Below are positions 4,316 to 31,300 of a stretch of DNA of 64,000 nt, in pieces; positions within the stretch are counted from its first letter, which is position 1, and each line of letters opens with the position of its first letter. Where the stretch lies: positions 4,320,001-4,384,000 of the forward strand of contig CAVYRF010000002.1 in the NCBI GenBank assembly GCA_963770895.1, given 5' to 3'. The notes under the pieces were generated by a model. That model was given only the letters and a program-made list of their open reading frames with translations, was not told the DNA's origin and made no database searches. The position numbers and the translations under genes were made by a program. This DNA is from an uncultured Acidobacteriota bacterium. GTDB lineage: Bacteria; Acidobacteriota; Thermoanaerobaculia; Multivoradales; UBA5704.

Positions 4316-7300
4316 GACCGGAGAACCTGGAGTCGGTATACCGGCTGTCGCCGGTGCAGGCGGGCATCCTGTTTCACGTCCTGCACGATCCGCAAGGCGG
4401 GCTCTATGGCCGGCAGCTGGTGGTCGAGCTTGCCGGCACCCTGGATGTGGAGCGGCTGGCGCAGGCCTGGGCCGGCCTGCTCGAACGCCACGCGGTGCTG
4501 CGGACCTCGTTTCACTGGCAGGAGGTGGCGCACCCGGTGCAGGTCGTCGCCCGCCAGGTGGCGCTGCCCTGGGAAGAGCTGGACTGGCGACAGCTGACCG
4601 CCGCGGAGCGCCAGCAGGCGATGGCGGAGCTGCTGCGCGCCGACCTGGCGCGGGGCTTCGACCTGGAGCGCCCGCCGCTGCTGCGTCTGACGCTGGTGCG
4701 CACCGGCGAGGCCGCCTGGGAGCTGATCTGGACCTTCCATCACCTGATCCTCGACGGCTGGTCGCTGCTGCTGCTGCTGCGCGAGGTGTTCGCGAGCTAC
4801 GCGGCGCTCTGCCAGGGGACGCGGCCGGCGGTCGCCAAAACGGTCCCTTACAAGGATTTCGTCGCCTGGCAGGAGCGCCAGGACGGGGCTGCCGCGGAGC
4901 GCTTCTGGCGCCAGCTGCTGGCGGGGTTCGCGGCGCCGACGCCGCTGCCGGTCGTGGCGCCGCCCGCGGTTGCAGCGGCGTCCGGGCATCGCTCGTACGA
5001 AGAGCGCAGCGTCGAGCTCGCGGCGGAGACCACCGCCGCGCTGGCGCGGGCGGCGCGGCGGCATGGGCTGACCGTCAACACGCTCTTGCAGGGAGCCTGG
5101 GCGGTGCTGCTGTCGCGCTACAGCCAGGAAGCCGACGTGGTGTTCGGCACCACGGTGTCCGGTCGCTCGGCGCCGCTGGCGGGGATCGAAGCCATGGTCG
5201 GGCTGCTCATCAACACCCTGCCGCAGCGGGTGCGGGTCGAGGACGGCCGCGCGCTGCTGCCCTGGCTGCGGGACCTCCAGCAGGCGCAGAGCGAGCTGCT
5301 GCAGCACGAGCACCATTCGCTCGCCGCGGTGCAGGGGTGGAGCGAGCTGCCGCGCGGGCTGCCGCTGTTCGACAGCATCGTGGTGTTCCAGAACCTGCCG
5401 ATCGAAACGATCCTGGACCAGGGCTTCGTCGGCTCGCTGCCGCTGCGCCTCGCGGTGCGCCGCGGCGGCGAGCCGCTCAACTACCCGCTCACCCTGATCG
5501 CCTTTGAAGGCGACCGGCTGGATCTCCGCCTGAGCTTCGAGCGCGGGCGGGTGGAAGCCGCGGCGGCGGTGCGCATGCTGTGGCATTTGCGGTCGCTGCT
5601 CGCGGGGATGGCCGCGCTCGCCGCCAGCCCGCACGCGGTGCTGGCCGATCTCTCTCCCTGGAGCGCGGCGGAGCGGCAGCAGCTGCTGGCCGAATGGAAC
5701 AGCGGCCCCGCCGTGCCGGTGGCTTGCGGCAGCCTGGCGGCGCACTTTGCGGCGGTGGCGGCCGAGCGGCCGCAGGCGGTGGCGGTGGTGTGCGCCGAGG
5801 CGCACCTGTCCTACGGCGAGCTGGCGGCCCGCGGCCGGCGCCTGGCGCGCCACCTGCGCCGTTGCGGGGTGATGCCGGGCGAGGCGGTGGCGCTGCTGCT
5901 CGAACGGTCGCCGGAGATGGTGGCGGCGATCCTGGGCGTGCTGGCGGCCGGCGCTGCCTACGTGCCGCTCGATCCGGCCTATCCGGAGGAGCGGCTGTCG
6001 TTCATCCTGGCTGACAGCGGGGCGCGCGTGGTGGTGATGGACGACGCGCTCGCGTCGCGCCTGCCGCTGCCCGCGGGGGTGCGGCGGGTGGCGCCGTCCG
6101 GCGGCGCGGCGGAGCAAGACGGCCAGGAGATCGGCGACGCCGCGGCGGCCGTCGGACCGGACGACCTGGCGTACGTGATCTACACCTCCGGCTCGACCGG
6201 CCGGCCGAAGGGGGTGGGGGTGACGCATGGCAACGTCCTGCGCCTGCTCACCTCGACCGCCGACGATTTCGCCATCGGCGCGCGCGACGTCTGGACGCTC
6301 TTTCATTCCTACGCCTTCGATTTCTCGGTATGGGAGCTGTGGGGGGCGCTGGCCGCCGGCGGACGGCTGGTCCTGGTGCCCTGGGCGGTGAGCCGGACGC
6401 CCGAGACGTTCCGGCAGCTGTTGATCCGCGAAGGGGTGACGGTGCTCAACCAGACCCCCTCGGCGTTCGGCCAGCTCATCGCGGTGGACGAGGCGGCGGC
6501 CAGGACGGCCGGCGGCGAGGGCGACCTGTGCGGCCTGCGCCTGGTGATCTTCGGCGGCGAGGCCCTGGAGCCGCGCCTGCTGCGGCCCTGGATCGCCCGC
6601 CACGGCGACGAGTCGCCGTGCCTGGTCAACATGTACGGCATCACCGAGACGACGGTGCACGTGACCCTGCGCCGGGTCGGCATCCGCGACCTGGAGGCGG
6701 GCAGCCGCATTGGCCGGCCGATCGCCGACCTGGCGGTCTACCTGCTCGATCGCTGCCTGGAGCCGGTGCCGGTGACCGTCACGGGCGAGATCTTCGTCGG
6801 CGGGGCGGGAGTGGCGCGCGGCTATCCGGGACGCCCGGACCTGACGGCCGAGCGGTTCGTCCCCGACCCGTTCGGCGGCGCCGCGGGTGCGCGGCTCTAC
6901 CGCTCGGGCGACCTGGCGCGCCACCGTGCCGACGGCGACCTGGAATACCTGGGGCGGCTCGATCACCAGGTGAAGGTGCGGGGCTTCCGCATCGAGCTCG
7001 CGGAGATCGAGCTGGCCCTGGCGAGCTTCGCCGGGGTGGCGGACGCGGCGGTGGTGCTGCGCCGCGGCCTGGCGGGGGGCGACGGGCTGGTCGCCTACCT
7101 GGTGGCGGAGCCCGGCGCCGATCCGCGGGGTGCGGCGCTGCGCGATCATCTGAAGAGCCGGCTGCCCGACTACATGATCCCGGTGCAGGTGGTGCTCCTG
7201 GCGGCGCTGCCGCTCACCGCCAACGGCAAGCTGGACCGCAGATGGCTGGCGGAGCTGGCGCCGCTGGACGCTGGCGGGGCTGGGCACGCCGACCCGGCGT

Positions 7301-10300
7301 CAGGGCCGCGCCCGCGCACGCCGGTCGAGGAGCTGGTGGGCGACCTTTTCGCCCAGGTCCTGGCGGTGCAGGAGGTGGGCGCGGACGCCGACTTCTTCGC
7401 CCTGGGCGGCCATTCGCTGCTCGCCACGCAGCTGCTGTCGCGGATGCGGGACGCTTTCCGGGTCGAGCTGCCGATGCGGGCGATCTTCGAGCAGCCGACG
7501 GTGGCCGGCCTGGCGCGGGAGATCGCCAAGGCGTCCAACCTGGGCGGCGCCGTGCCGCCGCCGCTGGTGCGCGGCGAGCGCGCGGCCGACGAACGACCTG
7601 CCGGAAGTGCCGCGACAGGCGAAAGCCGCGGCCCCCTGTCCTTCGCCCAGCAGCGGCTGTGGTTCGTCGACCAGCTGGAAGGCGGGTCGCTCTACAACGT
7701 GCAGGCCGCGCTGGCGGTGAGCGGCGAGCTGTCGGTCGCCTTGCTGTCGCGGGTGCTGGCGGAGGTGGTGCGCCGCCACGAGGTCCTGCGGACCGTGTTC
7801 CGCGCCGGCGGCGGCCAGCCGCGGCAGGTGATCCTGCCGCCGGCCGGCGTCGCGGTGCCCGTCGCCGACCTGACGGCCCTGGCCGCGGCGCGGCGGCAGC
7901 CGGCCGCGTCGAGTCTAGTGGCGGACCTGGCGCAGCGGCCGTTCGACCTGGCGCGCGGGCCGCTGCTGCGGGTGGGGCTGTTGCGCCTGGAGCAGACGGA
8001 GCACGTGCTGTTCCTGGCCCTCCACCACATCGTCAGCGACGGCTGGTCGCTCGGCGTGCTGGTGCGGGAGGTGACGGCCCTGTACACCGCCTTTGCCGCC
8101 GGTCAGCCGTCGCCGCTCGCACCGCTGCCGGTGCAGTACGCCGACTTCGCGTCCTGGCAGCGGCGCTGGCTCGCCAGCGCCACCGATGCGAGCGATGCCG
8201 GCGAAGCCCTCAGCGTGCTGGACCGGGAGCTGCGGTACTGGCGCTCCCACCTGGCCGGGGCGCCGGCGGTGCTGGATCTGCCCACCGACCGGCCGCGCCC
8301 GGCGCTGCGCAGCATCCACGGGGCGGTCCGCCCGCTGGCGCTCGGGCCGCGGCTGTCGGCGGACCTGGCGGCGCTGTCGCGGCGCGAGGGAGCGACGCTC
8401 TTCATGACCCTGGCGTCGGCGCTGAGCGTGCTGCTGTCGCGCTTCGCGGGGCAGAGCGACTTCACCCTGGGCACGGTGGTGGCCGGCCGTCACCACCTGG
8501 AGATCGAGGGGTTGATCGGGTTCTTCGTCAACACCCTGGTGCTGCGGCCGGAGTTGGCCGGCGAGCCGCGCTTTACCGAGCTCCTGACCCGCATGCGGCG
8601 GGAGGCGCTGGAAGCCTACGCCCACCAGGACCTGCCGTTTGAAAGGTTGGTGGAAGACCTGGCGCCGGAGCGCAGCCTGGCCCACACGCCGCTGTTCCAG
8701 GTGATGTTCGCCTGGCAGAACGCGGCGCTGGGCGAACTCGCGCTGCCGGGGCTGCGGCTGGCGCCCCGGGCGGTCGCGGACCAGACCGCCAAGTTCGATC
8801 TGACCCTGTCGCTCGCGGACAGCGGCTCGGCGATCGCCGGCGACATCTCCTACGCGCGGGACCTGTTCGACGCCGTGACGATCGAGCGGCTGGCGGCGGC
8901 CCTGCAGGTGCTGCTGGCGGCGGTGGTCGCGGAACCCGAGCTGCCGATCTCGCGGCTGCCGCTGTGGGATGCCGGGCAACGGCACCAGATGGTGGTCGAG
9001 TGGAACGCCACGGGCACGGACTGGCCGTCCGCCAGCACGCTGCCGGAGCTGTTCGCCCTGCAGGCGGCGGCCCATCCGCGGCGGCTCGCCTGGGAGCTCG
9101 GCGCTGAAGAGCTGTCGTACGCAGAGCTGGCCGTCCGCGCCGACGCGGTGGCGCGCTACCTCCGGCGGCAGGGGGTGGGGTCCGGGGACGTGGTGGGGGT
9201 CAGTCTGGAGCGTTCGGGAGCCGTGCTGGTGGCGATGCTGGGGATCGTCAAGGCCGGCGCCGCCTACCTGCCGCTCGACGCGGACTACCCGGCCGAGCGT
9301 CTGGCGTGGATGCTCGCCGACAGCGGCGCGCCGGTGGTGCTCACCCAGGAGAGCCTGGCGCCGCGCCTGCCGGCGGCGGGGCCGCGGGTGGTGCGGCTCG
9401 ACACGCAGTGGGAAGAGATCGCCGCCGCCCCTGCGGCCGGTGCAGCGGGTGTGGCCGGTGCAGCCGGCCAGGCGGGCGTCACGCCTGCGCCTGGCGCCGG
9501 GACCGCGGCGCCCGCGCCGCACCCGGAGGACCCGGCCTACGTGATGTACACGTCGGGTTCGACGGGGCGGCCCAAGGGCGTGGCGGTGCCGCACCGGGCC
9601 GTGGTCCGCCTGGTCCTGGCGACCGATTATGTCGACCTGCAGGCAGCCGGCCGCATCGCGCAGCTGTCCAACCTGGCGTTCGACGCGGCGACGTTCGAGA
9701 TCTGGGGCGCGCTGCTGGGCGGCGCGACGCTGGTGGGGGTGCCGCAGGAGGTGCTGCTGTCGCCGGCCGACCTGGCGGCCCACCTGGCGGCGGCGCGCGT
9801 CCGGGTGCTGTTCCTGACCACGGCGCTGTTCAACCAGGTGGCGCAGCAGGTGCCGGGCGCTTTCGCCGCCCTGGACACCGTGCTGTTCGGCGGCGAGGCG
9901 GGCGATCCGGAGGCGGTGCGCAAGGTCCTGGCCGGCGGCGCGCCGCGGCGCCTGGTGAACGCCTACGGGCCGACGGAAAACGCCACCTTCAGCACCTGGT
10001 ACCGGGTCGGAGCGTTGGCGGCGCAGGCGGTGACGGTGCCGATCGGGCGGCCGATCGCCAACAGCCGGGCGTACGTGCTGGACGCCGGGTTGCAGCCGGT
10101 GCCGCTGGGCGGCGTCGGCGACCTGTACCTGGCCGGCGCGGGGTTGGCGCTGGGCTATTGGCGGCAGCCGGAGCTGACGGCGGAGCGGTTCGTGGAGAGC
10201 CCGGCGCTGCCGGGTGAGCGGCTGTATCGGAGCGGCGACCGGGCTCGCCTGCTGGCGGAGGGCAACCTGGAGTTCCGCGGCCGTGACGACCAGCAGGTCA

Positions 10301-13300
10301 AGCTGCGCGGCTTCCGCATCGAGCTGGGCGAGATCGAGCTGGCGCTGACGGCGATCGCGGGGGTCGGCGAAGCGGCGGTGGTGCTGCGCGGCGACCTGGC
10401 GGGCGGCCGGGGCCTGGTCGCCTACGTGGTGCCGGCGGCTCCGGTCGGCGCGAGCAGCGCGGACGGTGTGGGCGCCGCGGGCTGGCCGGCCGAGCTGCGG
10501 CAGGCGCTGGCCGGCCAGCTGCCGGCGTACATGGTGCCGGCTCACGTGGTGCCCCTGGCGGCGCTGCCGCTGACCCCCAACGGCAAGGTGGACCGGCGTT
10601 TCCTCGCCGAGCGCGGGCCGCTGCCCGACGCCGCGGCCGGCGGCGCGCGGACCGCACCGCGCACGGTGACCGAGGAGCTGCTGGCCGGGATCTTCGCCGA
10701 CGTCCTGCAGCTGGGCGACCTGGGGGCGGAGGCCGACTTCTTCGCCCTGGGCGGGCATTCGCTGCTGGCCACGCAGCTGGTGTCGCGGGTGCGGGAGACG
10801 TTCGGGGTCGAGCTGCCGCTGCGGGCGGTGTTCGAGCGTTCGACGGTCGCCGACCTGGCGCGGGAGGTCGACACGGCGTCGAGCCCGCGCGGCAGCGCGC
10901 CGCCGCTGGTGCGCGCCGGCCGCCAGGGGGAGATTCCGCTGTCGTTCGCGCAGCAGCGGCTGTGGTTCATCGACCAGCTGGAGGGCGGGTCGCTCTACAA
11001 CGTGCCGATCGCGCTGCGCATGAGCGGCGACCTGTCGGTCGCGGTGCTGGCGCGGGTGTTGGGCGAGGTGGCGCGGCGCCACGAGGTGCTGCGGACGGTG
11101 TTCCAGTCGGTGGCAGGCCGGGCGCGCCAGGTGGTGCTGCCGGCGGCCGGGCTGGCGGTGCCGGTGGTCGACCTGACGGGCCTTGCCGCGGCGCAGCGCG
11201 AGCCGGCGGCGATGGGCCAGGCGACGGACGAAGCGCGGCGGGCGTTCGACCTGGCGCGCGGCCCGCTGGTGCGGGCGCGGCTCTGGCGGCTCGACCCGGC
11301 GGAGCACCTGCTGCTTTTGGCCATGCACCACATCGTCAGCGACGGCTGGTCGCTGGGCGTGCTGGTGCGCGAGGTCAAGGCCCTGTATGCGGCATTCGCG
11401 CTCGGCCTGCCGTCGCCGCTGCCCGAGCTGCCGGTGCAGTACGCCGACTTCGCGGTCTGGGAGCAGGAGCGGTTCGCCGGCGAGGCGCTGGCGGCGGACC
11501 TGACCTGGTGGCGCGAGCACCTGGCCGGCGCGCCGCCGCTGCTTGAGCTGCCCACCGACCGGCCGCGGCCGGCGATGCTGCAGCGCCAGGGCGGCAGCCT
11601 GCAACTGACCTATGACGTCGAGCTGGCCGCCGCGCTGACCCGGCTGGCGCACCAGCATGGGGCGACGCTCTTCATGGTGTTGCTGGCGGCGGTCCAGAGC
11701 CTGCTGGGCCGGCTCGCCGGCGCGCCCGAGGTCACGGTGGGCACGCCGATCGCGGGCCGCACGCGGCGCGAGACCGAGGACCTGATCGGCCTCTTCGTCA
11801 ACACGCTGGTGATGCGCGGCGACCTGGCGGACGATCCGTCGTTCGCCCGCCACCTGGCGCGCGTGCGGACCGAGGCGCTCGCCGCCTATGCCCACCAGGA
11901 GCTGCCGTTCGAGAAGCTGGTCGTCGAGCTGGCGCCGGAGCGCAGCTTGAACGCCACGCCGCTCTTCCAGGTGCTGCTGGCGCTGCGCAACGTGCCGATG
12001 GGAACGGTGGAGCTGCCGGGCGTGGCGCTGACGCCGGTCGACCTCGAGCCCAGCGTCACCCGCTTCGACCTGGAGCTGTCGTTCACCGATGCCGCCGCGC
12101 AGGGGTTGGCGGGACTGCCGGGAAGCATCGAGTACGACACCAGCCTCTTCGACCGCACGACGATCGCCCGCCTGGCGGGGCAGCTCGCGGCGCTGCTGCG
12201 CTCCGCCGCGGCGGCCGCGGAGCTGCGGCTGTCGGACCTGGCGCTGCTCACCGCGGCGGAGAGCCAGCAGCTGCTGGTGGAGTGGCGGCGGCACCCGCAG
12301 CCGTTGGCGTCGGCGCCGGTCGACGTCGCGACACGCCTGGCGGCCGCGGCGTCGCGCGCGCCGGACGCGGTGGCGCTGATTGCGGGAAGCCACTGGCTGA
12401 GCCACGGCGAGCTCGACCGGCGGGTGCGGCTGCTGGCGCAGCGGCTGCGCGGTCTGGGGGTGAAGCGGGAGACCCGCGTCGGCCTGCTGGTCGAACGGTC
12501 GCTCGACCTGGTGGTGGGCCTGGCGGCGATCTGGCGCGCCGGCGGCGCCGCGGTGCCGCTCGATCCCGGCCAGCCGCGCGCCCGCCTGGCGCTGATGGTC
12601 GAGGACGCCCTGGGACCGGCCGGTGCCCTGGTGGCGCAGCGCGGGCTGCTGGAGCTGGTGGCGGCGCTGCCGCTCGACCGCGTGCCGATCGCCTGGGTGG
12701 ACGCGGCGGCGGACCGGGCGACGGTCGGCGCACCGGCCGCACCGGCCGAGGCGGCAGAGCCGGTCGGCGCCGGCGACCTGGCGTACGTCATCTACACCTC
12801 GGGCACGACGGGGCGCCCCAAGGGGGTGATGGTCGAGCACGGCAGCCTGGCCCACACGCTGGCGGCGGTCGACGAGATGTTCGGCTTCGGCGCCGACGAC
12901 CGCATGCCGGTCCTGGCTTCGGCGTCGTTCGACATCTTCCTCTTCGAGCTGCTGGCGCCGCTCCTGGCCGGCGGCACGGCGGTGCTGTTCGACCTGCAGC
13001 CGACCCTCGACCTGGCGTTGGTGGCCGAGGAGCTGCGCACCTCGACGCTGCTGCACGCGGTGCCGGCGGTCATGCGGCAGCTGACGGCGGGCTTGCTGGC
13101 GCAGGGGGTGGAATGCCCGCGGCTGCGGCGGGTGTTCGTCGGCGGCGACGCGGTGGGCGCCGATCTGCTGGAGCTGATGCGGCGCGCCTTCCCGCAGTCG
13201 CGGCTGACGGTGCTCTACGGCCCGACCGAGGCCGCCATCCTGGCGTCGTGGGACGCCGGGGAGGCGCGGCCGGGGAGCGGGCTCGGCCGCCCGCTGCCGG

Positions 13301-16300
13301 GGGTGGCGGTGGCGGTGCTCGACGCCCTGGGCGCGCCGGTGCCGATCGGGGTGGCCGGCGAGCTGTGGCTGGGCGGACCTGGCGTGGCGCGGGGCTACCT
13401 GGGCCGGCCGGAGCTGACCGCGGAGCGCTTCGTGCCGGACCGGGAGGGCGGCGGGCGGCGCCTGTACCGCACCGGCGACCGGGTGCGCTTTACCGCCGCC
13501 GGCCGCCTGGAGTTTTTGGGCCGGGTGGACCAGCAGGTGAAGGTCCGCGGCTTCCGCATCGAGCTGGGCGAGGTCGAGGCGGCGCTGCTCGCCCATCCGG
13601 CGGTGCGCGAGGCGGCGGTCGTGGCGCGCCGCCAGGGCGGCGACGAACGGCTGGTGGCGTTCGTCGTCGGGGAGAGCCCGCCGCCGGCCGCGGAGCTGCG
13701 CCGGTTCCTGGACGCGCGCCTGCTGGCGGCGATGGTGCCGAGCCACTTCGTCCAGCTGGCGGCGCTGCCGCTGTCGCCGCACGGCAAGGTGGACCGGCGC
13801 GCGCTGGGGGCGCTGGCGACCCAGGCCGCTGCTGGAGCGGCGGGGGCGGCGGGGGATCCAGGGTCGTTCGGCGCGCCGCGGACGCCGCTCGAAGAGCTGG
13901 TGGCCGGCCTGTTCGCCGAGGTGCTGCACCTCGAGCGCGTCGGGCCGGAGGGCGACTTCTTCGAGCTGGGAGGTCATTCCCTGCTGGCGACACAGCTCGC
14001 CTCGCGCCTGCGGCAGGTGGCGGGCGCCGAGCTGCCGCTGCGCGCCATCTTCGAGCAGCCGACGGTGGCCGGCCTGGCGCGCCTGGTGGAGGAGGCGTCG
14101 CGGTCCGCCGCCGGCCCCGCCCGGCCGCCGATCCAGGCCGCGGCGCGGGAAGAGCCGCTGCCGCTGTCGTTCGCGCAGCAGCGGCTGTGGTTCATCGACC
14201 AGATGGAGGGCAGCTCCACCTACAACATGCCGATCGCGCTGCGGATGAGCGGCGCGCTGTCGGTCGCGGTGCTGCGGCGGGTGCTGGCCGAGGTGGTGCA
14301 GCGGCACGAGGTGCTGCGCACGGTGTTCTCCTCGGTCGAGGGGCATCCGCGCCAGGTGATCCTGCCGCCGGCCGGCGCGACGGCGGCAAGGGTCGGCCTG
14401 GTGGACCTGACTGCCCTGCCTGCCGTGCTGCGGCAGCCGGCGGCGACCGCCAGCATCGCGGCGGAAGCACGCCGGCCGTTCGACCTGGCGCGCGGCCCGC
14501 TGCTGCGCGGAGCGCTGTGGCGGCTCGACGCGACGGAGCACCTGCTGCTGCTGTCGCTGCATCACATCGTCGGCGACGGCTGGTCGCTCGGCGTGCTGGT
14601 GCGCGAGGTGACGGCGCTCTACACGGCGTTTGCCGCCGGGCACCCCTCGCCGCTCGCCCCCCTGCCGGTGCAGTACGCGGACTTCGCGGCCTGGCAGCGC
14701 GAGTGGCTGGCCGGCGACGTGCTGGCGGCGGAGCTGGAGCACTGGCGCGCCCGCCTGGCCGGGGCGCCGCCTCTGTTCGAGCTGCCCACCGACCGGCCGC
14801 GCCCGGCGGTGCAGAGCTTCCGCGGCGCCGTGCGCCCGGTGTCGCTGCCGCCGGCGCTGGGCGCGGCCTTGACCGCCCTCTCCCGGCGGCAGGGCGCCAC
14901 CCTTTTCATGACGCTGGCGTCGGCCTGGAGCGTGCTGCTGTCGCGCTACGCGGGGCAGAGCGACTTCACTCTGGGCACGGTGGTGGCCGGCCGCCACCGC
15001 CTGGAGATCGAGGGGCTGATCGGGTTCTTCGTCAACACCCTGGTGCTGCGCCCCGACCTGGCGGCCGAGCCGCGCTTTACCGACCTGCTGTCGCGGCTGC
15101 GCCACGAGACGCTGGACGCCTACGCGCACCAGGACCTGCCGTTCGAAAAGCTGGTGGAGGAGCTGGCGCCGGCGCGCAGCCTGGCCCATTCGCCGCTGTT
15201 CCAGGTGATGTTCGCCTGGCAGAACGCGGCGGTGGGGGAGCTGGCGCTGCCGGGGCTGCGGCTGGTGCCGCTGGAGCTGGCGGACGAGACCGCCAAGTTC
15301 GACCTCAACCTGGCGCTGCACGAAGCCGCGGGCGGCATCGCCGGCGACCTCTCCTACGTGCGCGACCTTTTCGACGCCCCGACGATCGCGCGGCTGGCGG
15401 CGGCCTTCCAGGTCCTGCTGGCGGCGGTGGCGGCGGATCCCGACCTGCCGATCGCGCGGCTGCCGCTGCTGGGGCCGAGCGAACGGCACCAGCTGGCGGT
15501 CGAGTGGAACGCCACCGGCACCAGCTGGCCGGCGGGCAGCACGCTGCCGCAGGTCTTCGCCTTGCAGGCGGCGGCGCATCCCCGGCGGCTCGCCTGGGAC
15601 TACGCCGGCGAACAGCTGCGCTACGAGGAGCTGGCCAGCCGCTCGGACGCGATGGCTGGCTTCCTGCGCCGGCACGGGGTGGCGGCGGGCGACCTGGTGG
15701 GGCTGTGCGTGGAGCGCTCGGGCGTCCTGCTGGTGGCGATGCTGGGGATCCTCAAGGCCGGCGCCGCCTACCTGCCGCTCGATGCCGACAACCCGCGCGA
15801 GCGGCTGGCGTGGATGCTCGAAGACAGCGGCACGCCGCTGCTGCTCACCCAGGAGAGCCTGGCGTCCCGGCTGCCGCCGTCCGCGGCGCGGGTGGTGCGG
15901 CTCGACTCGCAATGGGAAGAGGTCGTCGCCGCGGCGAGCCCGGCGGGCACGCTGCCCGCCGGCAGCCCGGCGGACGCGGCCATGGTGATCTATACCTCGG
16001 GCTCGACGGGGCGGCCCAAGGGTGTGGTGGTGCCGCACCGCGGTGTGGTCCGCCTGGTGGTGGCCAACGACTACGTCGATTTCGCCGGCCTGGATGCCGC
16101 GGCGGAACCGGGGCGGCGGGACGAGCCGGACGATGCCGGCAGGGTCAACCGGGTCTCGCAGACGTCCAACCTGTCGTTCGACGCGGCGACGTTCGAGATC
16201 TGGGGCGCCCTGCTCTCCGGCTCGACCCTGGTCGGGGTGCCCCATGAGGTCCTGCTGTCGCCGGCCGACCTGGCGGCGTACCTGACGACGGCGCGCATCC

Positions 16301-19300
16301 GCGTCCTGTTCCTGACCACGGCGCTGTTCCACCAGGCGGCGCACCAGGCGCCGGGGATGTTCGGCGCGATCGACACCCTGATGGCCGGCGGCGAGGCGAT
16401 GGATCCGGCGGCGGCGCAGAAGGTCCTGGCCAGCGCCACCCCGCCGCGGCGCCTGCTGAACCTCTACGGGCCGACCGAGAACTCCGTCTGCAGCACCTGG
16501 TTCCGGGTCGAGCTGCTGGCCGGGGAGGCGGCGGCGCACGCGGTGACGGTGCCGATCGGCCGGCCGATCGGCAACAGCCGGGCGTACCTGCTGGACGCGG
16601 GGTTGCAGCCGGTGGTGGTGGGCGGCGTGGGCGAGCTGTACGTCGCAGGCCTTGGCTTGGCGCTGGGCTATTGGCGCCAGCCGGAACGGACGGCGGAGCG
16701 CTTCCTGGAAAGCCCGGCGCTGCCGGGCGAGCGCCTGTACCGGACCGGCGACCGGGCGCGCCAGCTGGCGGACGGCAACTTCGAGTACCGCGGCCGCGGC
16801 GACCAGCAGGTCAAGCTGCGCGGCTTCCGCATCGAGCTGGGCGAGATCGAGCTGGCGCTGACGGCGATCGCGGACGTCGCCGAAGCCGCGGTGGTGGTGC
16901 GCGACGACCTTCCCGGCGGCCGCAGCCTGGTGGCCTACGTCGTACCCGCCGCGGATGCCGAACCGTCCGCGGCCGGGCTGCGGCAGGCGCTCAGGGACCG
17001 GCTGCCCGACTACATGGTGCCGGCCCGCTTCGTGCCCCTGGCGGCGCTGCCGCTGACGTCGCAAGGCAAGGTGGACCGCCGGTGGCTGGCGCAACGCGGG
17101 CCGCTGTCGCCGGGAGGCGGCGCGGCCGCCGCGCCGGCCGGCGCCTGGAGCAGTCCGGTCGAGGAGCTGCTGGGGGCGATCTTCGCCGCCGTCCTGGGCG
17201 TCGGCAGCGTCGCCGCGGACGACGACTTCTTCGCCCTGGGCGGGCACTCCCTGCTGGCCACGCAGGTGGTGTCGCGGCTGCGCGCGACCTTTGACGTCGA
17301 GCTGCCGGTGCGGCTGCTCTTCGAACGGTCGACCGTCCGGGAGCTGGCGCGGGCGGTCGAAGAGGAGCTGCGGCGCGGCGGCGCCACGGCCGCCCAGCCG
17401 CCGATCGCGCCGCGGCCGCGCGACGGGGCGGGCCTGCGACCTGCCGGAAGTGCCGCGACAGGCGAAAGCCGCGGCCCGCTGTCGTTCGCCCAGCAGCGGC
17501 TGTGGTTCGTCGATCAGCTGGCCAGCGGCTCGCTCTACAACGTGTCGATCGCGCTGCGGGCGGAAGGCGACCTGTCGATCGCGGTGCTGTCGCGGGTGTT
17601 CGCGGAAGTGGTGCGCCGGCACGAGGCGCTGCGGACGCTGTTCCGCGGCGCCGGCGGCCAGGTGCGGCAGGTGATCCTGCCGCCGGGCGGCTTCGACCTG
17701 CCGCTGGTGGACCTGTCGGCGGTGGCGCCGGCGTTGCGGGAAGCGACGGCGCTCGCGGCGCTTTCCGCCGAGGCGGAGCGGCCGTTCGACCTGGCCGGCG
17801 GCCCGCGAGATGAGGCGAGTGCCGGCCGGCCACGGCGGCCGGCCGGCCTGCTGCGGGTGCGGGTGTGGCGGCTCGGCGCCACCGAGCACCTGCTGCTGGT
17901 GGCGCTGCATCACATCGTCAGCGACGGCTGGTCGATGGGCGTGCTGGTGCAGGAGGTGGCGGCCCTCTACCGGGCATTCTCCCAGGGGGAGGCGTCGCCG
18001 CTCGCACCGCTGCCGGTGCAGTACGCGGATTTCGCGGCCTGGCAGCGGCAGTGGCTCTCCGGCGAGGTCCTGGCACAGGAGCTGGCGTACTGGCGCGGAT
18101 ACCTGGCCGGCGCGCCGCCGGTGCTGGAGCTGCCGACGGACCGGCCGCGCCCGCTGGTGCAGAGCCTGCGCGGCGGGCTGCTGCCGGTGGCGTTCGACCG
18201 CGCGCTGGCGGCGGCGGCGGCGCAGCTGGCCCTGCGCCACCGGGCGACGCTCTTCATGGTGCTCACCGCCGCGTTCCAGAGCCAGCTGGTGCGCCTGAGC
18301 GGCGTGCCCGACCTGTGCCTGGGCACGCCGATCGCAGGCCGCACGCGCCGCGAGACGGAAGGTCTGATCGGCTTCTTCGTCAACACCCTGGTGCTGCGCG
18401 GCGACCTGGGCGGTGATCCGTCGTTCGGCGACCACCTGGCGGCGGTGCGGCGGGAGGCGCTCGCCGCCTACGCCCACCAGGACCTGCCGTTCGAAAAGCT
18501 GGTCCTGGAGCTGGCGCCGGAGCGCAGCCTGGCCCACACCCCGCTGTTCCAGGTCATGTTCGCGCTGCAGAACGCGCCCATGGGGTCGCTCGACCTGCCG
18601 GGCGTGCGGCTGGCGCCGGTGGCGCTGGCCAGGGACGTCGCGCAGTTCGACCTGACGCTGTCGCTGGCCGCGGCGGATCCCGCGGAGCCTGCCGGGCTCG
18701 CGGGATTCGTCGAATACGCCGAGGCGCTGTTCGACCGCGCGACGGTGGCGCGTTGGATCGGCCAGCTGGAGACCCTGCTGCGCGGCGCCGTGGCGAGCCC
18801 GGAGACGCGGCTCTCCGAGCTGCCGCTGTGGAGCGCCGCGGAGCGCCAGCAGCTGCAGCGGGAGTGGCGCGGGGTGGCGCGGCCGGCGCCGGCGGCGAGC
18901 GTGCCGGCGAGCCTGGCGCTGCAAGCCGCGCTGACGCCGTCGGCGCCGGCGCTGGAGTGGGGGGACGTGCGCTGGACCCACGCCGAGCTGCAGCGGCGCG
19001 CCGGGCGGCTGGCGCGGCGCCTGCGCGCGGCCGGGGTGGGGGCGGAGACGCGGGTGGGGCTGCTGGTCGAGCGGTCGGCCGACCTGGTCGTGGGCCTCTT
19101 GGGGATCTGGCTGGCGGGCGGGGCCGCGGTACCGCTCGATCCCTGGCAGCCGGTGGCGCGCCTGCAGCTGCTGATGGCGGAGGCCTTGCCGGAAGGTGCC
19201 TCCGCCGTGGTGTCGCAGCACGTCCTGCGCGGGTTGCAGGAGTCGTTGGAGCTGGGATCGACGCCGGTCGTCCAGGTGGCGGAGACGGAGGACGGCGAGG

Positions 19301-22300: not shown

Positions 22301-25300
22301 TCCTGGCGGGGACGGTGGACGGCTCGCGGCGGCCGGTGGCGCTGCTGTTCTCGGGGTTGGGCGAGCAGTACCCGGCGATGGCGGCCGGTCTCTACCGCGA
22401 CCTTCCGGCCTTCCGCGAGCGGCTGGACCGCCATGCCGCGGTGCTGGCGCCGATCCTCGGGTTCGATCCGCTGGCGGTGCTCTTTGCCGGGGCGGACCGC
22501 CAGGCGGCCGGCGCGCCGGCCGCCGGCCTCGACCTGCGCCGGATGCTCGGCCGCCGGCGCGCCGGGACCGACCCCGGGGTGCCGGCGCCGGCCGACGAGC
22601 GGCTGGCGCGCACGGCGGTGTCCCAGCCGTTGCTCTTCGCGGTCGAGCTGGCGCTCGCCGGGACGTGGCGGGACTGGGGCATCCAACCGCAGGCGATGCT
22701 CGGCTACAGCCTGGGCGAGTACGTGGCGGCGTGCGTGGCCGGGGTGCTCGCCGCCGAGGACGCGCTGCGGCTGGTGGCGGAGCGGGCGCGTCTCATCGAC
22801 GCCCTGCCGGCGGGGGCGATGCTGGCCGTGCCGCTCGGGCCGGAGGAGCTGCGGCCGCTGCTCGCGGGCGAGCTGTGGGTGGCGGCGGTCAACGGGCCGC
22901 GGCTCACCGTGGTGTCGGGGGCGCCGGGGGCGGTGGCGGAGCTGGCGCGGCGGCTCGACCAGCTGGGGACGGCAAGCCGGCCGCTGGCCACGACGCACGC
23001 CTTCCACTGCCCGCTGCTGGCGCCGGTGGCGGCGGCGCTGGTCGAGCTGCTGCGCCGGGTGCCGCTCGCGGCGCCGCGCATCCCGTACCTGTCGAACCTG
23101 ACCGGCACCTGGATCACCGCCGCGCAGGCCACCGATCCGCAGTATTGGGCGGAGCAGATGTGCCGGCCGGTGCAGTTCGCCGCCGGCGTGGCCGAGCTGT
23201 GGCGGGAGCCGGGACGGGTGCTCCTGGAGGTCGGGCCGGGGGCGAGCCTGTCGTCGCTGGCGCTGCAGGCCGGCGGCGCGGCGGCCGACCCGGTGGCGGT
23301 CTCGTCGCTGCCGGGCGCCTACGAGCGCCAGCCGGACCGCGTCCACCTGCTGGGCGCCGCGGCAAAGCTCTGGCTGTCGGGGGTGCGCCTGGACTGGCGG
23401 GCGGCCTGGGGCGGCGAGCAGCGGCGGCGCGTCCCCCTGCCCACCTATCCGTTCGAGCGGCGGCGGTATTGGATCGAGCGCCGCCAGCCGGACCGCTTGT
23501 CCGGGGGCGGCGAGGCCGCCGGACGGGCGGGCGCCGGCGCCGGGCCGGGGCTGCACCTGCCGGCGTGGCGGCGGACGCCGGCGCTGCCGGTGCCGGGCGC
23601 TGCCGGGCTGCAGGCCGCGGGGGCGCCCTGGCTGGTGCTGGTGGAGGAGTCCGGCCTGGGCCAGCGCATCACGGCGCGGCTGCGGCAGGCGGGGGCGCGG
23701 GTGGTGGAGGTGACGGCCGGGACGGCGGGCGCCGGTTTCGCGTCGCTCCGGCCGGACACCTTCCGCATCGACCCGTGCGAGCCGCGCGACTACGACCTGC
23801 TGGCCGCGGCGCTCGGCGGTGCGGGCCGGCCGGGACCGGGGCGGATCGTTCACCTGTGGGGCATCGGCGCCGGGCGTGCCCGCGCCGCGGCCGGCCTGGG
23901 CCTGCGCGCCCTGCTCGGGTTGGCGCAGGCGCTCGACCGCGCGGCCGGGGGGAACGGTGGGACCGGCGCGGACGGCGCGGATGGCGCCGGCGGCGCCGCC
24001 AATACGCTGGCGTTGCTGGTGGCCGCCGACGGGCTGCATCCGTTCACCGGCTCGGCCCGGCGCCGTGCGGAGCTGGCGCCGCTCGGCGCCCTCTGCCAGG
24101 CGCTGCCGCGCGAGCTGCCGGGCGTCGCCAGCCGCGCGGTGGACATCGAGCTGCCGCGCGGCACGGGGGGGGCCGCGGAGCGGCGGTGGGAGCGGCTGGC
24201 GGCGGCCCTGCTGGCGGAGATCGCGGCAATGCCCGCCGCCGGCGTCGCCGGCACTGCCGGCGCGCCCGCGGCGGCGGCGGTCGCGCTGCGCGGCGGCGAG
24301 CGCTGGACGGAGGCGTTCGAGCCGGTGCCGCTGGCGCCCGCGCCGGGGTCGTCGTCGCTGCAGGGCGCCGTGCTGCTGGTGGGACGGCGCGCCGGGTTCC
24401 TGGCGGCCGCGGCGTCGGTTCTCGGCCAGGCCGGCGTGCGCACCGTCTGGGAGGAGAGCGACGCCGGCGGCGGCGGCACGCCCGCCGGGGCGGCGCCGGG
24501 CGGCCTGAACGCCGCGGGTGAGGAGCCGCTGGCCGGGGTGATCGTGGGAGAAGAGGCGCTGCTCGGCGACACGGCGCCGGTGCCGGCGGCGCGGCTCGAT
24601 GCCGCCGCGTGGGACGCCCTGCTGGCCGGGGTGGCGGATCGCTTCGCGGACCTCGGGCGGCGGCTGGCGGATCGCCAGCCGGGCTTCCGCGTCCTGGCGT
24701 CGTCCTGGTCGCCCTTGGCGGCGCTCCCGGCGCCGATGGCGGCGACTGCGGCGGCGGCGGCGAAGCCGGAGCCGGCGTGGCGCGCCGCGGCGCGCGGCCT
24801 GCTCGACGCCCTGGCCGAAAAGGCGGGCCGTGCGGAGCCGCACTCCCCCTGGGTGCGAGTCGCCTGGGACGGGCTGGCGGCGATGCCTGCGGGGATGGTT
24901 GCGGACCTGCTGGCGCGGTTGGCGTCGGAGGCGGACGGCGGGCGCTTCGCGGTGTCGCCGGGCGAGGCGGCCGTGCCGCGGTCCACGCCGGAGGCCGGCG
25001 ACTTCCCGGGGACGCTCCACGGCCGGCCGAACCTCAAGCATGCCTACGTCGCCCCCGAAGGGGAGGTCGAGCGCCAGCTGACGGTGATCTGGCAGGAGCT
25101 GCTGGGCATCCAGGGGATCGGCGTCCACGACAGCTTCTTCGAGCTGGGCGGCGACTCGCTCCAGGCGGTGCAGGTGATCTCGCGGGTGCGCGGCGCCTGG
25201 GGGGTGGAGATCGCTCTGGGCGCGCTCTTCGAGACGCCGACGCCGCGGGCGCTCGCCGCCACGCTGCGGACAATGCGGCCGGACGCCAGGCCCGCCATCG

Positions 25301-28300
25301 TGCCGCAGCCGCGGCAGGGGGGCGCCGCGGCGGAGTTGCCGCTGTCGTTCGCGCAGCGGCGGCTGTGGTTCATCGACCAGCTGGAAGGCGGCGCCCTGTA
25401 CAACGTGCCGCTCGCGGTGCGGTTGGAAGGCCCTCTGTCGGCCGCCTTGCTGTCGCGGGTGCTGGGGGAGGTGGTGCGCCGGCACGAAGGCGTGCGTACC
25501 GTGTTCCCGGGCGTCGACGGCCAGGCGCGGCAGGTGATCCTGCCGCCGTCCGCGGTGGCGGTCGCGGTCGTCGATCTGACGGGTCTGGCGCCGGCGCTGC
25601 GCCAGCCGGTGGCGGCGGACCTGGTGCGGGAGGACGTGCGCCGGCCGTTCGACCTGGCGCGCGGGCCGCTGCTGCGGGCAGGGCTCTGGCGCCTGGGCGC
25701 GGCCGAGCACGTGATGCTGCTCAACCTCCACCACATCGTCAGCGACGGCTGGTCGCTGGGCGTGCTGCTGCGGGAGATGACGGCCCTGTACGCGGCCTTT
25801 GCCGCCGGTCAGCCGTCGCCGCTTGCCCCGCTGCCGGTGCAGTACGCGGATTTCGCGGCCTGGCAGCACGGCTGGCTGGCCGCCGATGCCGGCGGCGCCG
25901 GCGGCGCCGGCACCACCCTGGAAGCGGAGCTGCGCCATTGGCGCTCGCGGCTGGCCGGGGTGCCGCCGGTGTTCGAGCTGCCCACCGACCGGCCCCGCCC
26001 GGCGGTGCAGAGCTTCCGCGGCGGGGTCCGCTCGCTGGCGCTGGCGCCGGAGCTTGCCGCGGCCCTGGCGGCGCTGTCACGCCGCGAGGGAGCGACGCTC
26101 TTCATGACGCTGGCGTCGGCGCTGAGCGTGCTGCTGTCGCGCTTCGCGGGGCAGAGCGACTTCACCCTGGGCACGGTGGTGGCCGGCCGTCACCACCTGG
26201 AGATCGAGGGGTTGATCGGGTTCTTCGTCAACACCCTGGTGCTGCGGCCCGACCTGGCCGGCGAGCCGCGCTTCACCGACCTGGTGGCGCGGATGCGCGA
26301 CGAGGCGCTGGCCGCGTTCGCGCACCAGGATCTGCCGTTCGACAAGCTGGTGGAAGACCTCGCGCCGGAGCGCAGCATGGCCCACACGCCGCTGTTCCAG
26401 GTGATGTTCGCCTGGCAGAACGTGGCGGTGGGAGAGGTGTCGCTGGCGGGCCTGCGCCTGGTGCCGCTGGAGCTGGGCGAGGAGGTCGCCAAGTTCGACC
26501 TGACCCTGACGCTGCACGACAGCGGGTCGGGGATCACCGGCAACATCTCCTACGCACGGGACCTGTTCGACGCCGCGACGATCGAGCGGCTGGCAGCGTC
26601 CCTCCAGGTGCTGCTGGCGGCGGCGGCCGCGGACCCCGAGCTGCCGATCTCGCGGCTGCCGCTGTCGAGCCCCGCGCAGCGGCACCAGCTGGTGGTCGAG
26701 TGGAACGCCACGGACACCGACTGGCCGAGCGGCAGCACGCTGCCGGAGCTGTTCGCCCTGCAGGCGGCGGCCCATCCGTGGCGGCTGGCCTGGGAGCTCG
26801 GCCGCGAGCAGCTGTCGTACGCGGAGCTGGCCGTCCGCGCCGACGCGGTGGCGCGCTACCTCCGGCAGCAGGGGGTGGGGTGCGGGGACGTGGTGGGGCT
26901 CTGTATCGAGCGTTCGGGGGCCGTGCTGGTGGCGATGCTGGGGATCGTCAAGGCCGGGGCCGCCTACCTGCCGCTCGATGCGGCCTACCCGGCGGAGCGC
27001 CTGGCGTGGATGCTCGCCGACAGCGGTGCGCCGGTGGTGCTCACCCAGGAGAGCCTGGCGCCGCGCCTGCCGGCCGCGGGACCGCGGGTGGTGCGGCTCG
27101 ACACGCAGTGGGCAGAGATCGCCGCCCCCCCTGCGGCCGGTGCGGCCGGTGTGGCCGGCGGGGCGGGCGTCACACATGCGGCCGGCGCCGGGGACGCGGC
27201 GCCCGCGACGCGCCCGGAGGACCTGGCCTACGTGATCTATACGTCGGGCTCGACGGGGCGGCCCAAGGGCGTGGCGGTGCCGCACCGGGCGGTGGTCCGC
27301 CTGGTTCTGGCGACCGACTACGTCGATCTGGAGGCAGCCGGCCGGATCGCGCAAACGTGCAACCAGGCGTTCGACGTGGCGACGTTCGAGATCTGGGGCG
27401 CGCTGCTGTGCGGCGCGACGCTGGTGGGGGTGCCGCAGGAACTGCTGCTGTCGCCGGCCGAGCTGGCGGCACACCTGGCGGCGGCGCATGTCCGGGTGCT
27501 GTTCCTGGTCACGGCGCTGTTCAACCAGGTGGCGCAGCAGGCGCCGGGTGCCTTCGCCGGGGTGGACACCGTGCTGTTCGCCGGCGAGGCGGCCGATCCG
27601 GAGGCGGTGCGCAAGGTCCTGGCGGGCGGCGCGCCGCGGCGCCTGGTGAACGCCTACGGGCCGACGGAAAACACCACCTTCAGCACCTGGTACCGGGTCG
27701 AAGCGTTGGCGGCGCACGCGGTGACGGTGCCGATCGGGCGGCCGATCGCCAACAGCCGGTCGTACGTGCTGGACGCCGGGTTGCAGCCGGTGCCGCCGGG
27801 CGGCGTCGGCGACCTGTACCTGGCGGGCGCTGGGCTGGCGGTGGGCTATTGGCGGCAGCCGGAGCTGACGGCGGAGCGGTTCGTGGAGAGCCCGGCGCTG
27901 CCGGGTGAGCGGCTGTACCGGTCCGGCGACCGGGCTCGCCTGCTGGCGGACGGCAACCTGGAGTTCCGCGGCCGTGACGACCAGCAGGTCAAGCTGCGCG
28001 GCTTCCGCATCGAGCTGGGCGAGATCGAGCTGGCGCTGACGGCGATCGTGGGTGTCGCCGAAGCGGCGGTGGTGCTGCGCGGCGACCTGGCGGGCGGCCG
28101 GGGATTGGTCGCCTACGTGGTGCCGGCGGCACCTGGCGGCGCGGGCGATGGAGGCGGTGTGGGCGCCGCGGGCTGGCCGGCGGAGCTGCGGCAGGCGCTG
28201 GCAGGCCACCTGCCGGGCTACATGGTGCCGGCTCACGTGGTGCCCCTGGCGGCGCTGCCGCTGACCCCCAACGGCAAGGTGGACCGGCGCTTCCTGGCCG

Positions 28301-31300
28301 AGCGCGGGCCGCTGCCCGACGCCGCGGCCGGCGGCGCGCGGATCGCGCCGCGCACCGTGACCGAGGAGCTGCTGGCGGGGATCTTCGCCGACGTCCTGCG
28401 GTTGGAGGGCGTCGGGGCGGAGGCCGACTTCTTCGCCCTCGGCGGGCACTCGCTGCTGGCCACCCAGCTGGTGTCGCGGGTGCGGGCGGCGTTCGGGGTC
28501 GAGCTGCCGCTGCGGGCGGTGTTCGAGCGTTCGACGGTCGCCGGGCTGGCGCTGGAGGTCGACCGGGCGGCCAGCCTGGGCGGCAGTGTGCCGCCGCTGG
28601 TGCGCGCCGACCGGCAGGGGGAGCATCGACCTGCCGGAAGTGCCGCGACAGGCGACAGCCGCGGCCCGCTGTCGTTCGCGCAGCAGCGGCTGTGGTTCAT
28701 CGACCAGCTGGAGGGCGGGTCGCTCTACAACCTGCCGATCGCCCTGCGCATGAGCGGCGACCTGTCGGTCGCGCTGCTGGCGCGGGTGCTGGGCGAGGTG
28801 GCGCGGCGCCACGAGGTGCTGCGGACGGTGTTCCAGTCGGTGGAGGGCCGGGCGCGCCAGGTGGTGCTGCCGGCGGCCGGGCTGGGCGTCCCGGTGGTCG
28901 ACCTGACGGGTCTTGCCGCGGCGCTGCGCGAGCCGGCGGCGACCGGCCAGGCGATGGGCGAGGCGCGGCGGGCGTTCGACCTGGCGCGCGGCCCGCTGAT
29001 GCGGGTGCGGCTCTGGCGGCTTGACGCGACGGAACACCTGCTGCTGCTGGCCATGCACCACATCGTCAGCGACGGCTGGTCGATGGGCGTGCTGGTGCGG
29101 GAGGTGACGGCCCTCTATACGGCGTTCGCGCTCGGCCGGCCGTCGCCGCTGCCCGAGCTGCCGGTGCAGTACGCCGACTTCGCCGCCTGGCAGCAGAGCT
29201 GGCTCTCGGGCCAGGTGCTGGCGGCGGAGATGGATCACTGGCGCCGCCGCCTGGCCGGCGCGCCGCCGGTTTTGGAGCTGCCGACCGACCGGGCCCGCCC
29301 GCCGGTGCGCAGCTTCCGCGGCGCCACGCGCGCCCACCGCCTGTCGCCGGCGCTGACGCAGACCATCCTGGCGTTGGCGCGGCGCCGGGGGACGACGCTC
29401 TTCATGGCTCTTGCCGCCGGTTTCCAGGCCTGGCTGGCGCGCATCAGCGGCCAGACCGATTTCACCCTGGGCACGCCGATCGCCGGCCGCAACCGCCTGG
29501 AGACCGAGGGCTTGATCGGCTTCTTCGTCAACACCCTGGTGCTGCGCGCCGAGCTGTCCGACGACCCCGCCGCCGGCGAGATCCTGGACCGCGTGCGGCG
29601 GCAGACGCTGGCGGCGTATCAGCACCAGGACCTCCCCTTCGAGAAGCTGGTCGAGGAGCTCGATCCGGAGCGCAGCCTGAGCCGCGCGCCGCTGTTCCAG
29701 GTGATGCTGGTGCTGCAGAACAACGCGGCGGAACGGCTGGAGATGCCGGGCCTTGAGCTGCGGCCGGTGGCGGTCCCCACCGGGACGACCGACTTCGACC
29801 TGACGCTGGTGGCGGGGGAGAGCGAGCAGGGGCTGGACGCGATGCTCGACTACAGCACCGACCTGTTCGACGCCGCGACCGTGGCGCGGTTCCTGGCGCA
29901 GATCGAGCGGCTGCTTGGCGCCGTCGCGGCGGCGCCGGAGACGCGGCTGTCGCAGCTGCCGCTGCTCGGCGCCGGCGAACGCCACCAGGTGGTGGCCGAA
30001 TGGGCCGCCTGGAGCGAATGGGCCGGCCGCGCCGCGGCGAGCGAGGGCAGCGGCGGCGGGCCGGACCGCGCCGGGGGCGGGCTGCTGCATGCGCCTTTCT
30101 TCGCCCAGGCGGCGCTGGTTCCCGAGCGCGTGGCCTTGACCTGTGGCGAAGCGCACGTGACCTATGGCGAGCTGGCGGCTCGCGCCGGCCGCCTGGCGCG
30201 CCAGCTGGCGGTCCTGGGCGCCCGCGCCGAGGCGCCGGCCGGCATCCTGCTGGAACGCGGCGTGGATCGCATCACCGCCGTGCTCGGCGTGCTGATGACG
30301 GGCGCCCTCTACCTGCCCCTCGACCCGTCGCTGCCGCGGGAGCGCGTCGGCGAGCTGCTGGCCGGCGCCGGCGCCGCGCTGGTGGTGACGCGCGAGGAGC
30401 TGCTGGAGCTGGTGCCGGCCGCCACCACCGCCCTCTGCCTTGGACGCGACGGCGCGAACGACGCAACTGGCGCGAACGTCGCGAGCGGCGCGCACGAGGC
30501 GAACGGCGCCTACGTCCTGTACACCTCGGGCTCGACCGGCCGCCCCAAGGGGGTGCTGGTCGAGCATCGCGCCGCCGCCTGGTACTCCCGGTGCGCCGCC
30601 GGCAACTTCGCCTTGACGCCGGCCGACTGCGCCCTGCAGTTCGCCTCCCTCAGCTTCGACGTCAGCATCGAGGAGATCTTCCCGATCCTGGCGAGCGGCG
30701 GCCGGCTGGCGATCCTGCCGCCCGGCGACGTGCCGACGGCGGCCGAGTTCCTGGCCGCGTGCCGGACGGCGGGGGTCACCGTCCTCACCCTGGCGACCGC
30801 CTACTGGCACGAGCTGGCGATCGAGGTCGAGGCGCGGCCGCACACGCTGCCGCCGGCGCTGCGCCTGGTCTCGATCGGCGGCGAAAAGGCCAGGCCGGAC
30901 CGCGTCGCGTCGTGGCAGCGCGCCGCCGCCGGCAGCGCCGTGTACAACGGCTACGGCCCCACCGAAACCACCGTCATCGCCACGCTCTACCGGGTGGAGT
31001 GCGGGCCGTGGGACGCCGCGGCCGACCTGCCGCTGGGCCGTCCCATCCCCGGCGCTCGCACCTTCGTCGTGGACCGCCAGCTGCAGCCGCTGCCGCCGGG
31101 AGCGCCGGGGGAGCTGGCGATCGGCGGCGCCGGCCTGGCGCGCGGCTACCTGGGCGAGCCGGCGATGACGGCGGAGCGCTTCGTGCCGGACCCGTTCGGC
31201 GCCGCGGGCGACCGGCTGTATCGCACCGGCGACCTGGCGCGTCAGCGGCCGGACGGCCAGATCGAGTTCCTGGGGCGGATCGACCACCAGGTGAAGCTGC

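Follow-up and report, generated by a model that had tools for sequence, protein, structure and literature searches.

A dispersed 39-nucleotide hairpin repeat unit lies in frame before condensation domains of an acidobacterial nonribosomal peptide synthetase

The window analysed here, a stretch of 64,000 nucleotides from the genome of an uncultured Thermoanaerobaculia acidobacterium (contig C2, positions 4320001-4384000; genome of 8.16 Mb, three contigs, 70.7% GC), contains a nonribosomal peptide synthetase/polyketide synthase (NRPS/PKS) gene in which a 39-mer recurs three times. This 39-mer is very probably a unit of a dispersed hairpin repeat confined to one Thermoanaerobaculia genus, and its copies in the NRPS gene are insertions that would most likely be neutral passengers. 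The host open reading frame (ORF; 4312..36630, + strand) encodes 10,772 aa arranged as condensation-adenylation-thiolation (C-A-T) modules with one ketosynthase-acyltransferase (KS-AT) module and seven internal C-domain starts; its Pfam domains are Condensation, AMP-binding, PP-binding, ketoacyl-synt and Acyl_transf_1, and the G+C fraction at third codon positions (GC3) is 0.949.

As an earlier note on this DNA had reported, the window holds three + strand matches to the 39-mer, at 7594, 17437 and 28627 with 0, 0 and 1 mismatches, and no others; 100 shuffles of the sequence gave 0 matches. The first copy (7594..7632, with stem arms at 7609-7614 and 7627-7632) reads in frame as RPAGSAATGESRG and lies in the T-C linker that leads to the C domain beginning at aa 1109. 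The second (17437..17475), identical to the first, precedes the C domain starting at aa 4390, and the third (28627..28665), ahead of the C domain starting at aa 8120, carries one change in the loop (GAAA to GACA) that replaces E with D. All three are translated within the one shared ORF as the 13 residues RPAGSAATG[E/D]SRG, and all three directly precede the stretch PLSFAQQRLWF, which we take to be the C1 motif of the condensation domain. Their upstream linkers differ to the point of being mutually unalignable, and the first 9 bases downstream of the unit already differ between copies 1 and 2.

The unit also departs from the codon usage of its host. The rare codons named in the earlier note are indeed scarce gene-wide (CGA, 5 of 934 Arg codons; CCT, 16 of 737; GGA, 42 of 1015; AGT, 7 of 452; ACA, 4 of 440), and 6 of the 13 codons in the unit end in A or T against the GC3 of 0.949 elsewhere in the gene (binomial 2e-5). 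Only 3 of 10,760 other 13-codon windows reach six such endings, and these overlap one another. They fall at 9424-9468 in module 2, the sole other place in the NRPS ORF with at least six A/T-ending codons per 13, where an Ala/Gly-rich low-complexity stretch, AAPAAGAAGVAGAAG, is encoded that may be another foreign or slipped insert.

Full units occupy three of the seven C-start junctions of the gene. At an empty paralogous site (10930..10938, + strand) the sequence reads GAG ATT CCG, compared with GAG CAT followed by the 39 nt and CCG at 28618-28668. The difference had been described as a clean 39-nt indel; the length difference is exactly 39 nt, but the adjoining codon, ATT versus CAT, differs at two of its three bases. 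The filled junctions follow modules 1, 4 and 7, that is, every third boundary, a spacing that is not significant with seven junctions, and duplication of a three-module block finds no support in the flank similarity of the filled junctions.

A repeat family with a covarying stem

The 39-mer belongs to a repeat family. A family profile built from fuzzy matches and run with nhmmer (E<1e-3) located 53 units at 29 loci on both strands of the genome, either single or in head-to-tail arrays with a period of 39 and up to about 11 units, and most of these loci are situated between ORFs of high GC3. The ends of the unit (CGACCTG...CSSCGGC) are fixed in every sequence context in which it occurs. An exact unit pattern matched 4 of 41 genomes, all from one genus, with 38 matches in the genome studied, 68 in G002, 24 in G005 and 1 in G003; these counts understate the spread of the family, since a divergent subfamily occurs in G008. 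A scan of a species-representative collection returned the pattern in two metagenome-assembled genomes (MAGs) only, both labelled Thermoanaerobaculia bacterium. The proposal of a tiny coding palindromic element of the REP/RPE kind is thus borne out by the number of units and loci, by the covarying stem and by the in-frame copies in unrelated genes described below, while the restriction to NRPS linkers for which the earlier note had proposed a check is not seen, the units being dispersed genome-wide and 16 of the 29 loci having an arm of a MITE (a transposable element of the miniature inverted-repeat kind) directly beside the unit array.

The genome is extremely rich in NRPS genes, with 172 matches to the C-domain start motif on both large contigs, nearly all of them a linker plus C-domain start, and only three of the 172 have a full unit. 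When metagenomes were scanned for the NRPS-type stem, four loci and no additional NRPS case appeared. The best sequencing run shared 0.19 of words, and contigs assembled from four runs over 9000-28999 of the window were short fragments from many organisms; no RNA run was among the sequencing runs listed as containing the sequence.

Covariation was assessed on 35 unique sequences drawn from 118 units, 37 of which nhmmer had located in the own genome; the other 81 came from the two MAGs and were gathered by a pattern that left positions 17, 19-21, 34-35 and 38 free. The supported fold consists of a 6-bp stem between unit positions 16-21 and 34-39, inside which a GC/GC pair closes a 4-nt loop. 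The hairpin proposed earlier is therefore a real fold, although its pairing differs slightly from the one drawn, GCCGC-(GACA bulge)-GGC-GAAA-GCC-GCGGC. Stem cells are paired in 97.6% of cases in the 35 unique units, compared with 29-52% when the partners are slid, a level reached by none of 2000 shuffles, and compensatory double changes occur in three of the six stem pairs: 17-38 (CG/TA), 20-35 (GC/CG) and 21-34 (GC/AT). Among units, only paired stems were amplified. The dominant stem is GCCGGG/CCCGGC in the own genome, GCCGCA/TGCGGC in G002 and GTCGCG/CGCGAC in G005, the last also present at two loci of the own genome, while G008 has GCCGCC/GGCGGC and the NRPS copies have GCCGCG/CGCGGC. Of the 35 unique units, 34 have a loop that fits GNRA; the loop is different in the G008-type subfamily, which is also found at C2:4392201. 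With DNA parameters, the minimum-energy fold is the supported hairpin in three variants, and the sequence GGCGAAAGCC contains a motif that we take to be an unusually stable DNA mini-hairpin. The z scores of the DNA folds (-0.9 to -1.2) and of the antisense RNA (-1.83) are suggestive only.

Filled and empty sites in a MITE and in other genes

The MITE that carries many of the units is 160 bp long, with terminal inverted repeats of about 28 nt and, for the copy in the window (60422..60581, - strand), CTAG on both sides, flanks that are presumably linked to an IS5-type target. It has the features by which MITEs are recognised, namely a length below 200 bp, terminal inverted repeats, a flanking target duplication and many copies. 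The copy in the window is empty, and in filled copies the unit sits between MITE bases 60 and 61. Of 26 type-A copies in the own genome, 18 are empty, with arms of 60 nt and 100 nt abutting, and eight are filled between the same two bases by 38, 39, 39, 39, 39, 78, 82 and 500 nt of units, corresponding to 1, 2 or about 13 units. Over 95 core bases, the nearest copy to a filled copy is an empty one in seven of the eight cases, including one pair that is 100% identical, and the eighth case is a tie. The same unit sequence occurs in three different MITE backbones. The unit itself has neither terminal inverted repeats nor a target-site duplication, and filled and empty sites differ by the unit alone.

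MITE copies are present in all 10 genomes of the genus, including uninterrupted ones in G004, G007, G008 and G009, genus genomes without a pattern match; in G008, a filled MITE carries a 39-nt unit of another subfamily at the same insertion point, and the units of G002 are flanked by other conserved sequences. MITE bases 51-108 (window 60474-60531, - strand) form a core that is 91-97% identical in many short cross-species matches. The core surrounds the insertion point, and both MITE types, A and B, have it in common. Its conservation exceeds that of the MITE ends, and it may have a function or be specially targeted. The largest array (G000:C2:430540-431192, G000 being the own genome) occupies about 500 nt within a single type-A MITE with units that grow more and more degenerate, and it overlaps the predicted start of a 381-aa ORF.

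Filled and empty states were also observed in coding sequences unrelated to NRPSs. In a Lactamase_B_2 (MBL-fold) protein (C2:2585789-2586721), three units and a partial one, read as DLPGMSRPAAAAT and similar, add 50 aa directly after ECTFL, and this insertion is absent from all nine orthologs in the genus. In the own genome, units also make up the C-terminal tail of a 602-aa protein, and a partial unit that of a response-regulator/HD protein. A conserved G002 protein, about 1,055 aa long, that has SPDG-type repeats and looks PD40-like by eye carries DLPEVPRQATAAA (13 aa) in a variable loop; the 13 residues are absent from the six orthologs that align there, a comparison that excludes the G004 and G005 rows. 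The ortholog of this protein in the own genome (G000:C2:2053112-2056846) has a different Ala/Gly/Pro-rich insert of about 35 aa in the same loop, which makes the loop a repeated insertion site. In G002, more units are found inside ORFs or at ORF ends, and two of these run antisense to the ORF. NRPS T-C linkers of G005 hold three units, which match those of the own genome in frame and orientation but sit upstream by one more codon (before LPLSF) and are followed by another kind of C domain. Frame preservation, which the earlier note had proposed to check, is thus found in the three NRPS copies of the own genome, the MBL-fold protein, the PD40-like protein of G002 and the three NRPS copies of G005, with additional cases in G002.

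These observations are best explained by the following picture: (i) the unit is inserted at, or absent from, one exact point of an older IS-type MITE; (ii) a trans-acting function would recognise the folded unit and move or copy it precisely; (iii) slippage would multiply units locally into head-to-tail arrays in steps of 39; (iv) units would hitch-hike on the MITE; (v) occasionally a unit lands in coding DNA, where its 13 codons and stop-free frames allow it to be translated as a Gly/Ser/Ala/Pro-rich loop; and (vi) the NRPS insertions lie in a permissive stretch just before the condensation domain, having arisen either through the element's own precise insertion or through very short transfers from junction to junction.

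Origin of the synthetase copies

In the NRPS gene, the units are younger than their surroundings. Across four windows between -600 and +900, the flanks of the filled junctions are 68-79% mutually identical, against an agreement of the units at 38-39 of 39 positions; by arithmetic on flank identity, the chance of 39/39 at 78% identity is about 6e-5. The filled junction at 28666 is closest to the empty one at 10936, with 93, 90 and 95% identity, without gaps, from -600 to +300 and 77% beyond +300. This 90-95% tract (10336-11236 and 28066-28966), a recent conversion or duplication patch, reaches from the A-domain end across the T domain into the C domain, of which it covers the first 100 aa. Since the closest junction is empty and the units are more alike than their flanks, the unit does not follow the module tree, and these sequence comparisons indicate that the NRPS copies arrived after module divergence, in at least two events. 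The earlier note had allowed that only these three copies might exist and might go back to module duplication with shared flanks; neither the copy number nor the flanks agree with this.

Several findings weigh against the reading favoured here. The changed codon beside the 39-nt indel (ATT/CAT) means that the insertion was not perfectly clean or that the site has changed since, and, as the units share descent, each compensatory pair in the stem may be a single amplified event. The NRPS stem, GCCGCG/CGCGGC, has no other full copy in the own genome, so that no external donor is visible. All six NRPS copies of the two species share frame and orientation, and they are equally placed within each genome, before the P of PLSF in the own genome and before the L of LPLSF in G005, which reflects either a site preference or non-independence. 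Given their shared stem variant, position, frame and orientation, the three NRPS copies of the own genome are not independent draws from the MITE pool, and they probably derive from one another. A fourth junction, at C1:1177360 in another NRPS with the same EGGxLYNV C-domain subtype, has a possible decayed copy with 14 identical terminal bases that ends at the same position (score 37, against a 95th percentile of 30) and hints at an older presence of the unit in this C-domain lineage. Lastly, no mobilising enzyme was found. The own genome encodes a single PF01797 Y1 transposase (C2:1635231-1635587, 143 aa, IS200-like by reading of its sequence), its 3.4-kb locus contains no unit, and the gene, although present in G005, was undetected in G001-G004, among them G002, a 94% complete genome with the most units. 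The link to RAYT or IS200 transposases that had been envisaged is accordingly not seen.

Further observations concern possible targets and the Y1 locus. The bases 5' of the unit showed no conserved target tetranucleotide. Target mimicry was considered and rejected as an explanation of the junction sites: the 3' flanks resemble the unit start at a mean of 6.71 of 14 positions against 5.82 for random places in the genome (P about 6e-4), but this excess comes from degenerate extra units, and at 5-6 the flanks of the NRPS copies score no higher than the null. In the G005 homologs of junction 28666 (loci L094 and L104), where no decayed unit is recognisable, the native linker ends ...GCCGCGGC CGGC CGACCTGCCG CTG (ADLPLSF) and holds the last 8 and first 10 bases of the unit 4 nt apart; in GC-rich DNA this could arise by chance, or it could point to how targets are chosen. 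In the Y1 locus (L001, G000:C2:1633731-1637087), repeats of about 300 nt flank the IS200-like gene on both sides and give near-identical spurious ORFs at L001 893-1195 and 2019-2321. This layout resembles that of the terminal inverted repeat-associated tyrosine transposases mentioned in a paper on REPs (Di Nocera, De Gregorio and Rocco 2013, PMC3733652, cited here and below from excerpts).

The strongest competitor is short-patch homologous transfer, by which one insertion would have been copied between T-C linkers by gene conversion, with the nearly identical C-domain start CCGCTGTCGTTCGCSCAGCAGCGGCTGTGGTTC providing the homology and no part played by an insertion mechanism of the element itself. 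We regard it as improbable, yet it has more in its favour than the remaining alternatives: it would account for a stem variant found only in the NRPS copies of the own genome and for their like frame, orientation and position within each genome, and the modules are mosaic, the tract shared by 10936 and 28666 showing that conversion does occur in the host gene. Set against it, each of the three copies loses identity precisely at the two ends of the unit, with unalignable flanks upstream, and one would not expect conversion tracts to share both end points three times over; moreover, the one long shared tract that can be demonstrated, 10936/28666, did not carry the unit.

Ordinary module duplication, in which an ancestral unit would have been inherited, kept identical by selection on the peptide or hairpin and lost from the empty paralogs, is distinctly less credible. 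The possibly decayed copy on contig C1, in the same C-domain subtype, and the units at T-C junctions of a second species would fit it. It is contradicted by the gap between flank and unit identity, by the fact that the filled junctions are not each other's closest relatives, one of them being closest to an empty junction, by the variation of MITE units at many positions, which means that the hairpin does not demand an exact sequence, and by codon usage that is not adapted to the host gene.

Functional punctuation, with the messenger RNA hairpin or the 13-residue peptide acting at module boundaries, for instance as a pause in translation that serves co-translational folding or as a longer hinge, is very unlikely. 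The position at domain boundaries, the GNRA-fitting loops and one of the three 79-nt sense RNA contexts, which folds better than shuffles (z -1.92), are consistent with it; the other two contexts (z +0.90 and +0.49) are not. The minimum-energy fold of the sense-strand RNA of the unit is not the supported hairpin, and its stability is no better than that of shuffles (z -0.16 and -0.01); at the gathering score, Rfam gave 0 matches on both strands of the 64-kb window; and the loop differs in the subfamily of G008 and C2:4392201. With the unit at only three of seven junctions and 3 of 172 C-start matches, and mostly intergenic inside a MITE, the idea of an mRNA structure that punctuates the 32-kb frame is not supported, and no sign of a role for the synthetase was found in junction occupancy, sense RNA stability or Rfam. 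Equally slight is the chance of the reverse direction, a 39-mer that began as a piece of NRPS linker and spread after capture by the MITE: the NRPS-type stem looks ancestral, lying one compensated pair from the main variant of each genome and occurring in three genomes and one metagenomic MITE copy, but the unit uses codons foreign to the gene that hosts it, no more than 3 (perhaps 4) of 172 junctions are filled, and the homologous G005 junctions have no recognisable unit.

Beyond the dispersed repeat itself, we raise a bolder possibility, which we hold to be rather doubtful: the 39-mer may be a mobile element reduced to the minimum, consisting of one fixed-end hairpin that a trans-acting enzyme excises or copies as folded single-stranded DNA and re-inserts with no target duplication, with the MITE core as preferred and C-domain starts as secondary sites, and with its NRPS copies serving as portable crossover points. 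If this were true, units would enable in-frame loss, gain and swapping of NRPS modules. The 39 identical in-phase bases at three module boundaries would be enough in principle for rare homologous crossovers; no recombination product of modules arising from the units was seen.

Comparison with known repeats and elements

The findings bear on several fields. For the biology of mobile DNA, they present a very small unit for which a MITE core, an NRPS linker and a conserved enzyme each exist in a filled and an empty form, and genome-specific subfamilies that keep the stem paired, which makes unit movement testable in a lineage without RAYT. For work on NRPSs, they show where 13 extra residues are tolerated in nature in two species, namely one or two residues ahead of the C-domain start, and for annotation, the units account for unusual codons and for indels in the linkers of megasynthases.

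Mobilisation of hairpin DNA by IS200/IS605 elements and REPIN-RAYT systems is described in PMC3733652. In such systems precise ends, the lack of a target duplication and hairpin dependence go together. The unit shares the precise ends and the lack of a target duplication with both, and its compensated stems suggest a hairpin dependence; unlike them, it has a single hairpin rather than two ends and no conserved 5' tetranucleotide, and the Y1 gene is unlinked to it. REPs of the GTAG and CGTC types are described in that paper, in the excerpts cited, as GC-rich stem-loops of 20-40 bp that are mostly intergenic, some lying inside genes whose proteins stay intact. At 39 nt, with a 6-bp covarying stem and repeated in the genome, the unit is of REP size, and like REPs it differs strongly in copy number between related species; CGTC REPs also resemble it in being without a dedicated transposase (PMC3733652). 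The unit differs from REPs in that (i) none of the 35 unique units has a GTAG or CGTC tag beside the stem, the bases 5' of the stem being AAGT, GAGT or GAAT and the unit starting with CGAC or CTCC and ending with CGGC; (ii) its arrays are head-to-tail, while REPs are given in the paper as mainly inverted dimers with negligible tandem arrays; (iii) no repeat-flanked RAYT gene, as known from REP/REPIN-RAYT systems, was found for the unit; and (iv) a 15-nt 5' part lies outside the main stem.

RPEs (Ogata et al. 2000, 2002), according to excerpts of PMC3049150 and PMC10969869, are selfish palindromes that sit in frame in protein-coding genes unrelated to each other, where they are translated into a loop that is tolerated. 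The unit likewise inserts in frame and leaves the reading frame open, but RPEs are, in the same excerpts, about 100-150 bp long and belong to AT-rich Rickettsia, whereas the unit has 39 nt, is mostly intergenic and resides in a free-living soil acidobacterium of 71% GC.

BOX elements of Streptococcus pneumoniae and S. suis have the structure boxA-(boxB)n-boxC, in which the middle module may be absent or present in variable tandem and folds alone (Croucher et al. 2011, PMC3049150, in excerpts). The unit shows the same kind of organisation in its MITE, with 18 of 26 copies empty and 8 filled at one point, and just as boxB of S. suis occurs between different end modules (PMC3049150), the unit occurs between different backbones. 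The excerpts of that paper do not describe boxB as inserting alone in coding DNA, whereas bare units are present in NRPS and other genes. We found no description of the unit family in the literature, in which no search specific to the sequence of the unit was made. To conclude, the unit represents a REP/RPE/boxB-like repeat family that is apparently undescribed; what is new is the family as such, the filled and empty alleles of its modular 39-nt unit and the fact that one site before the C domain was used repeatedly, and the family's organisation, by analogy and in organisation only, is closest to that of boxB in BOX elements.

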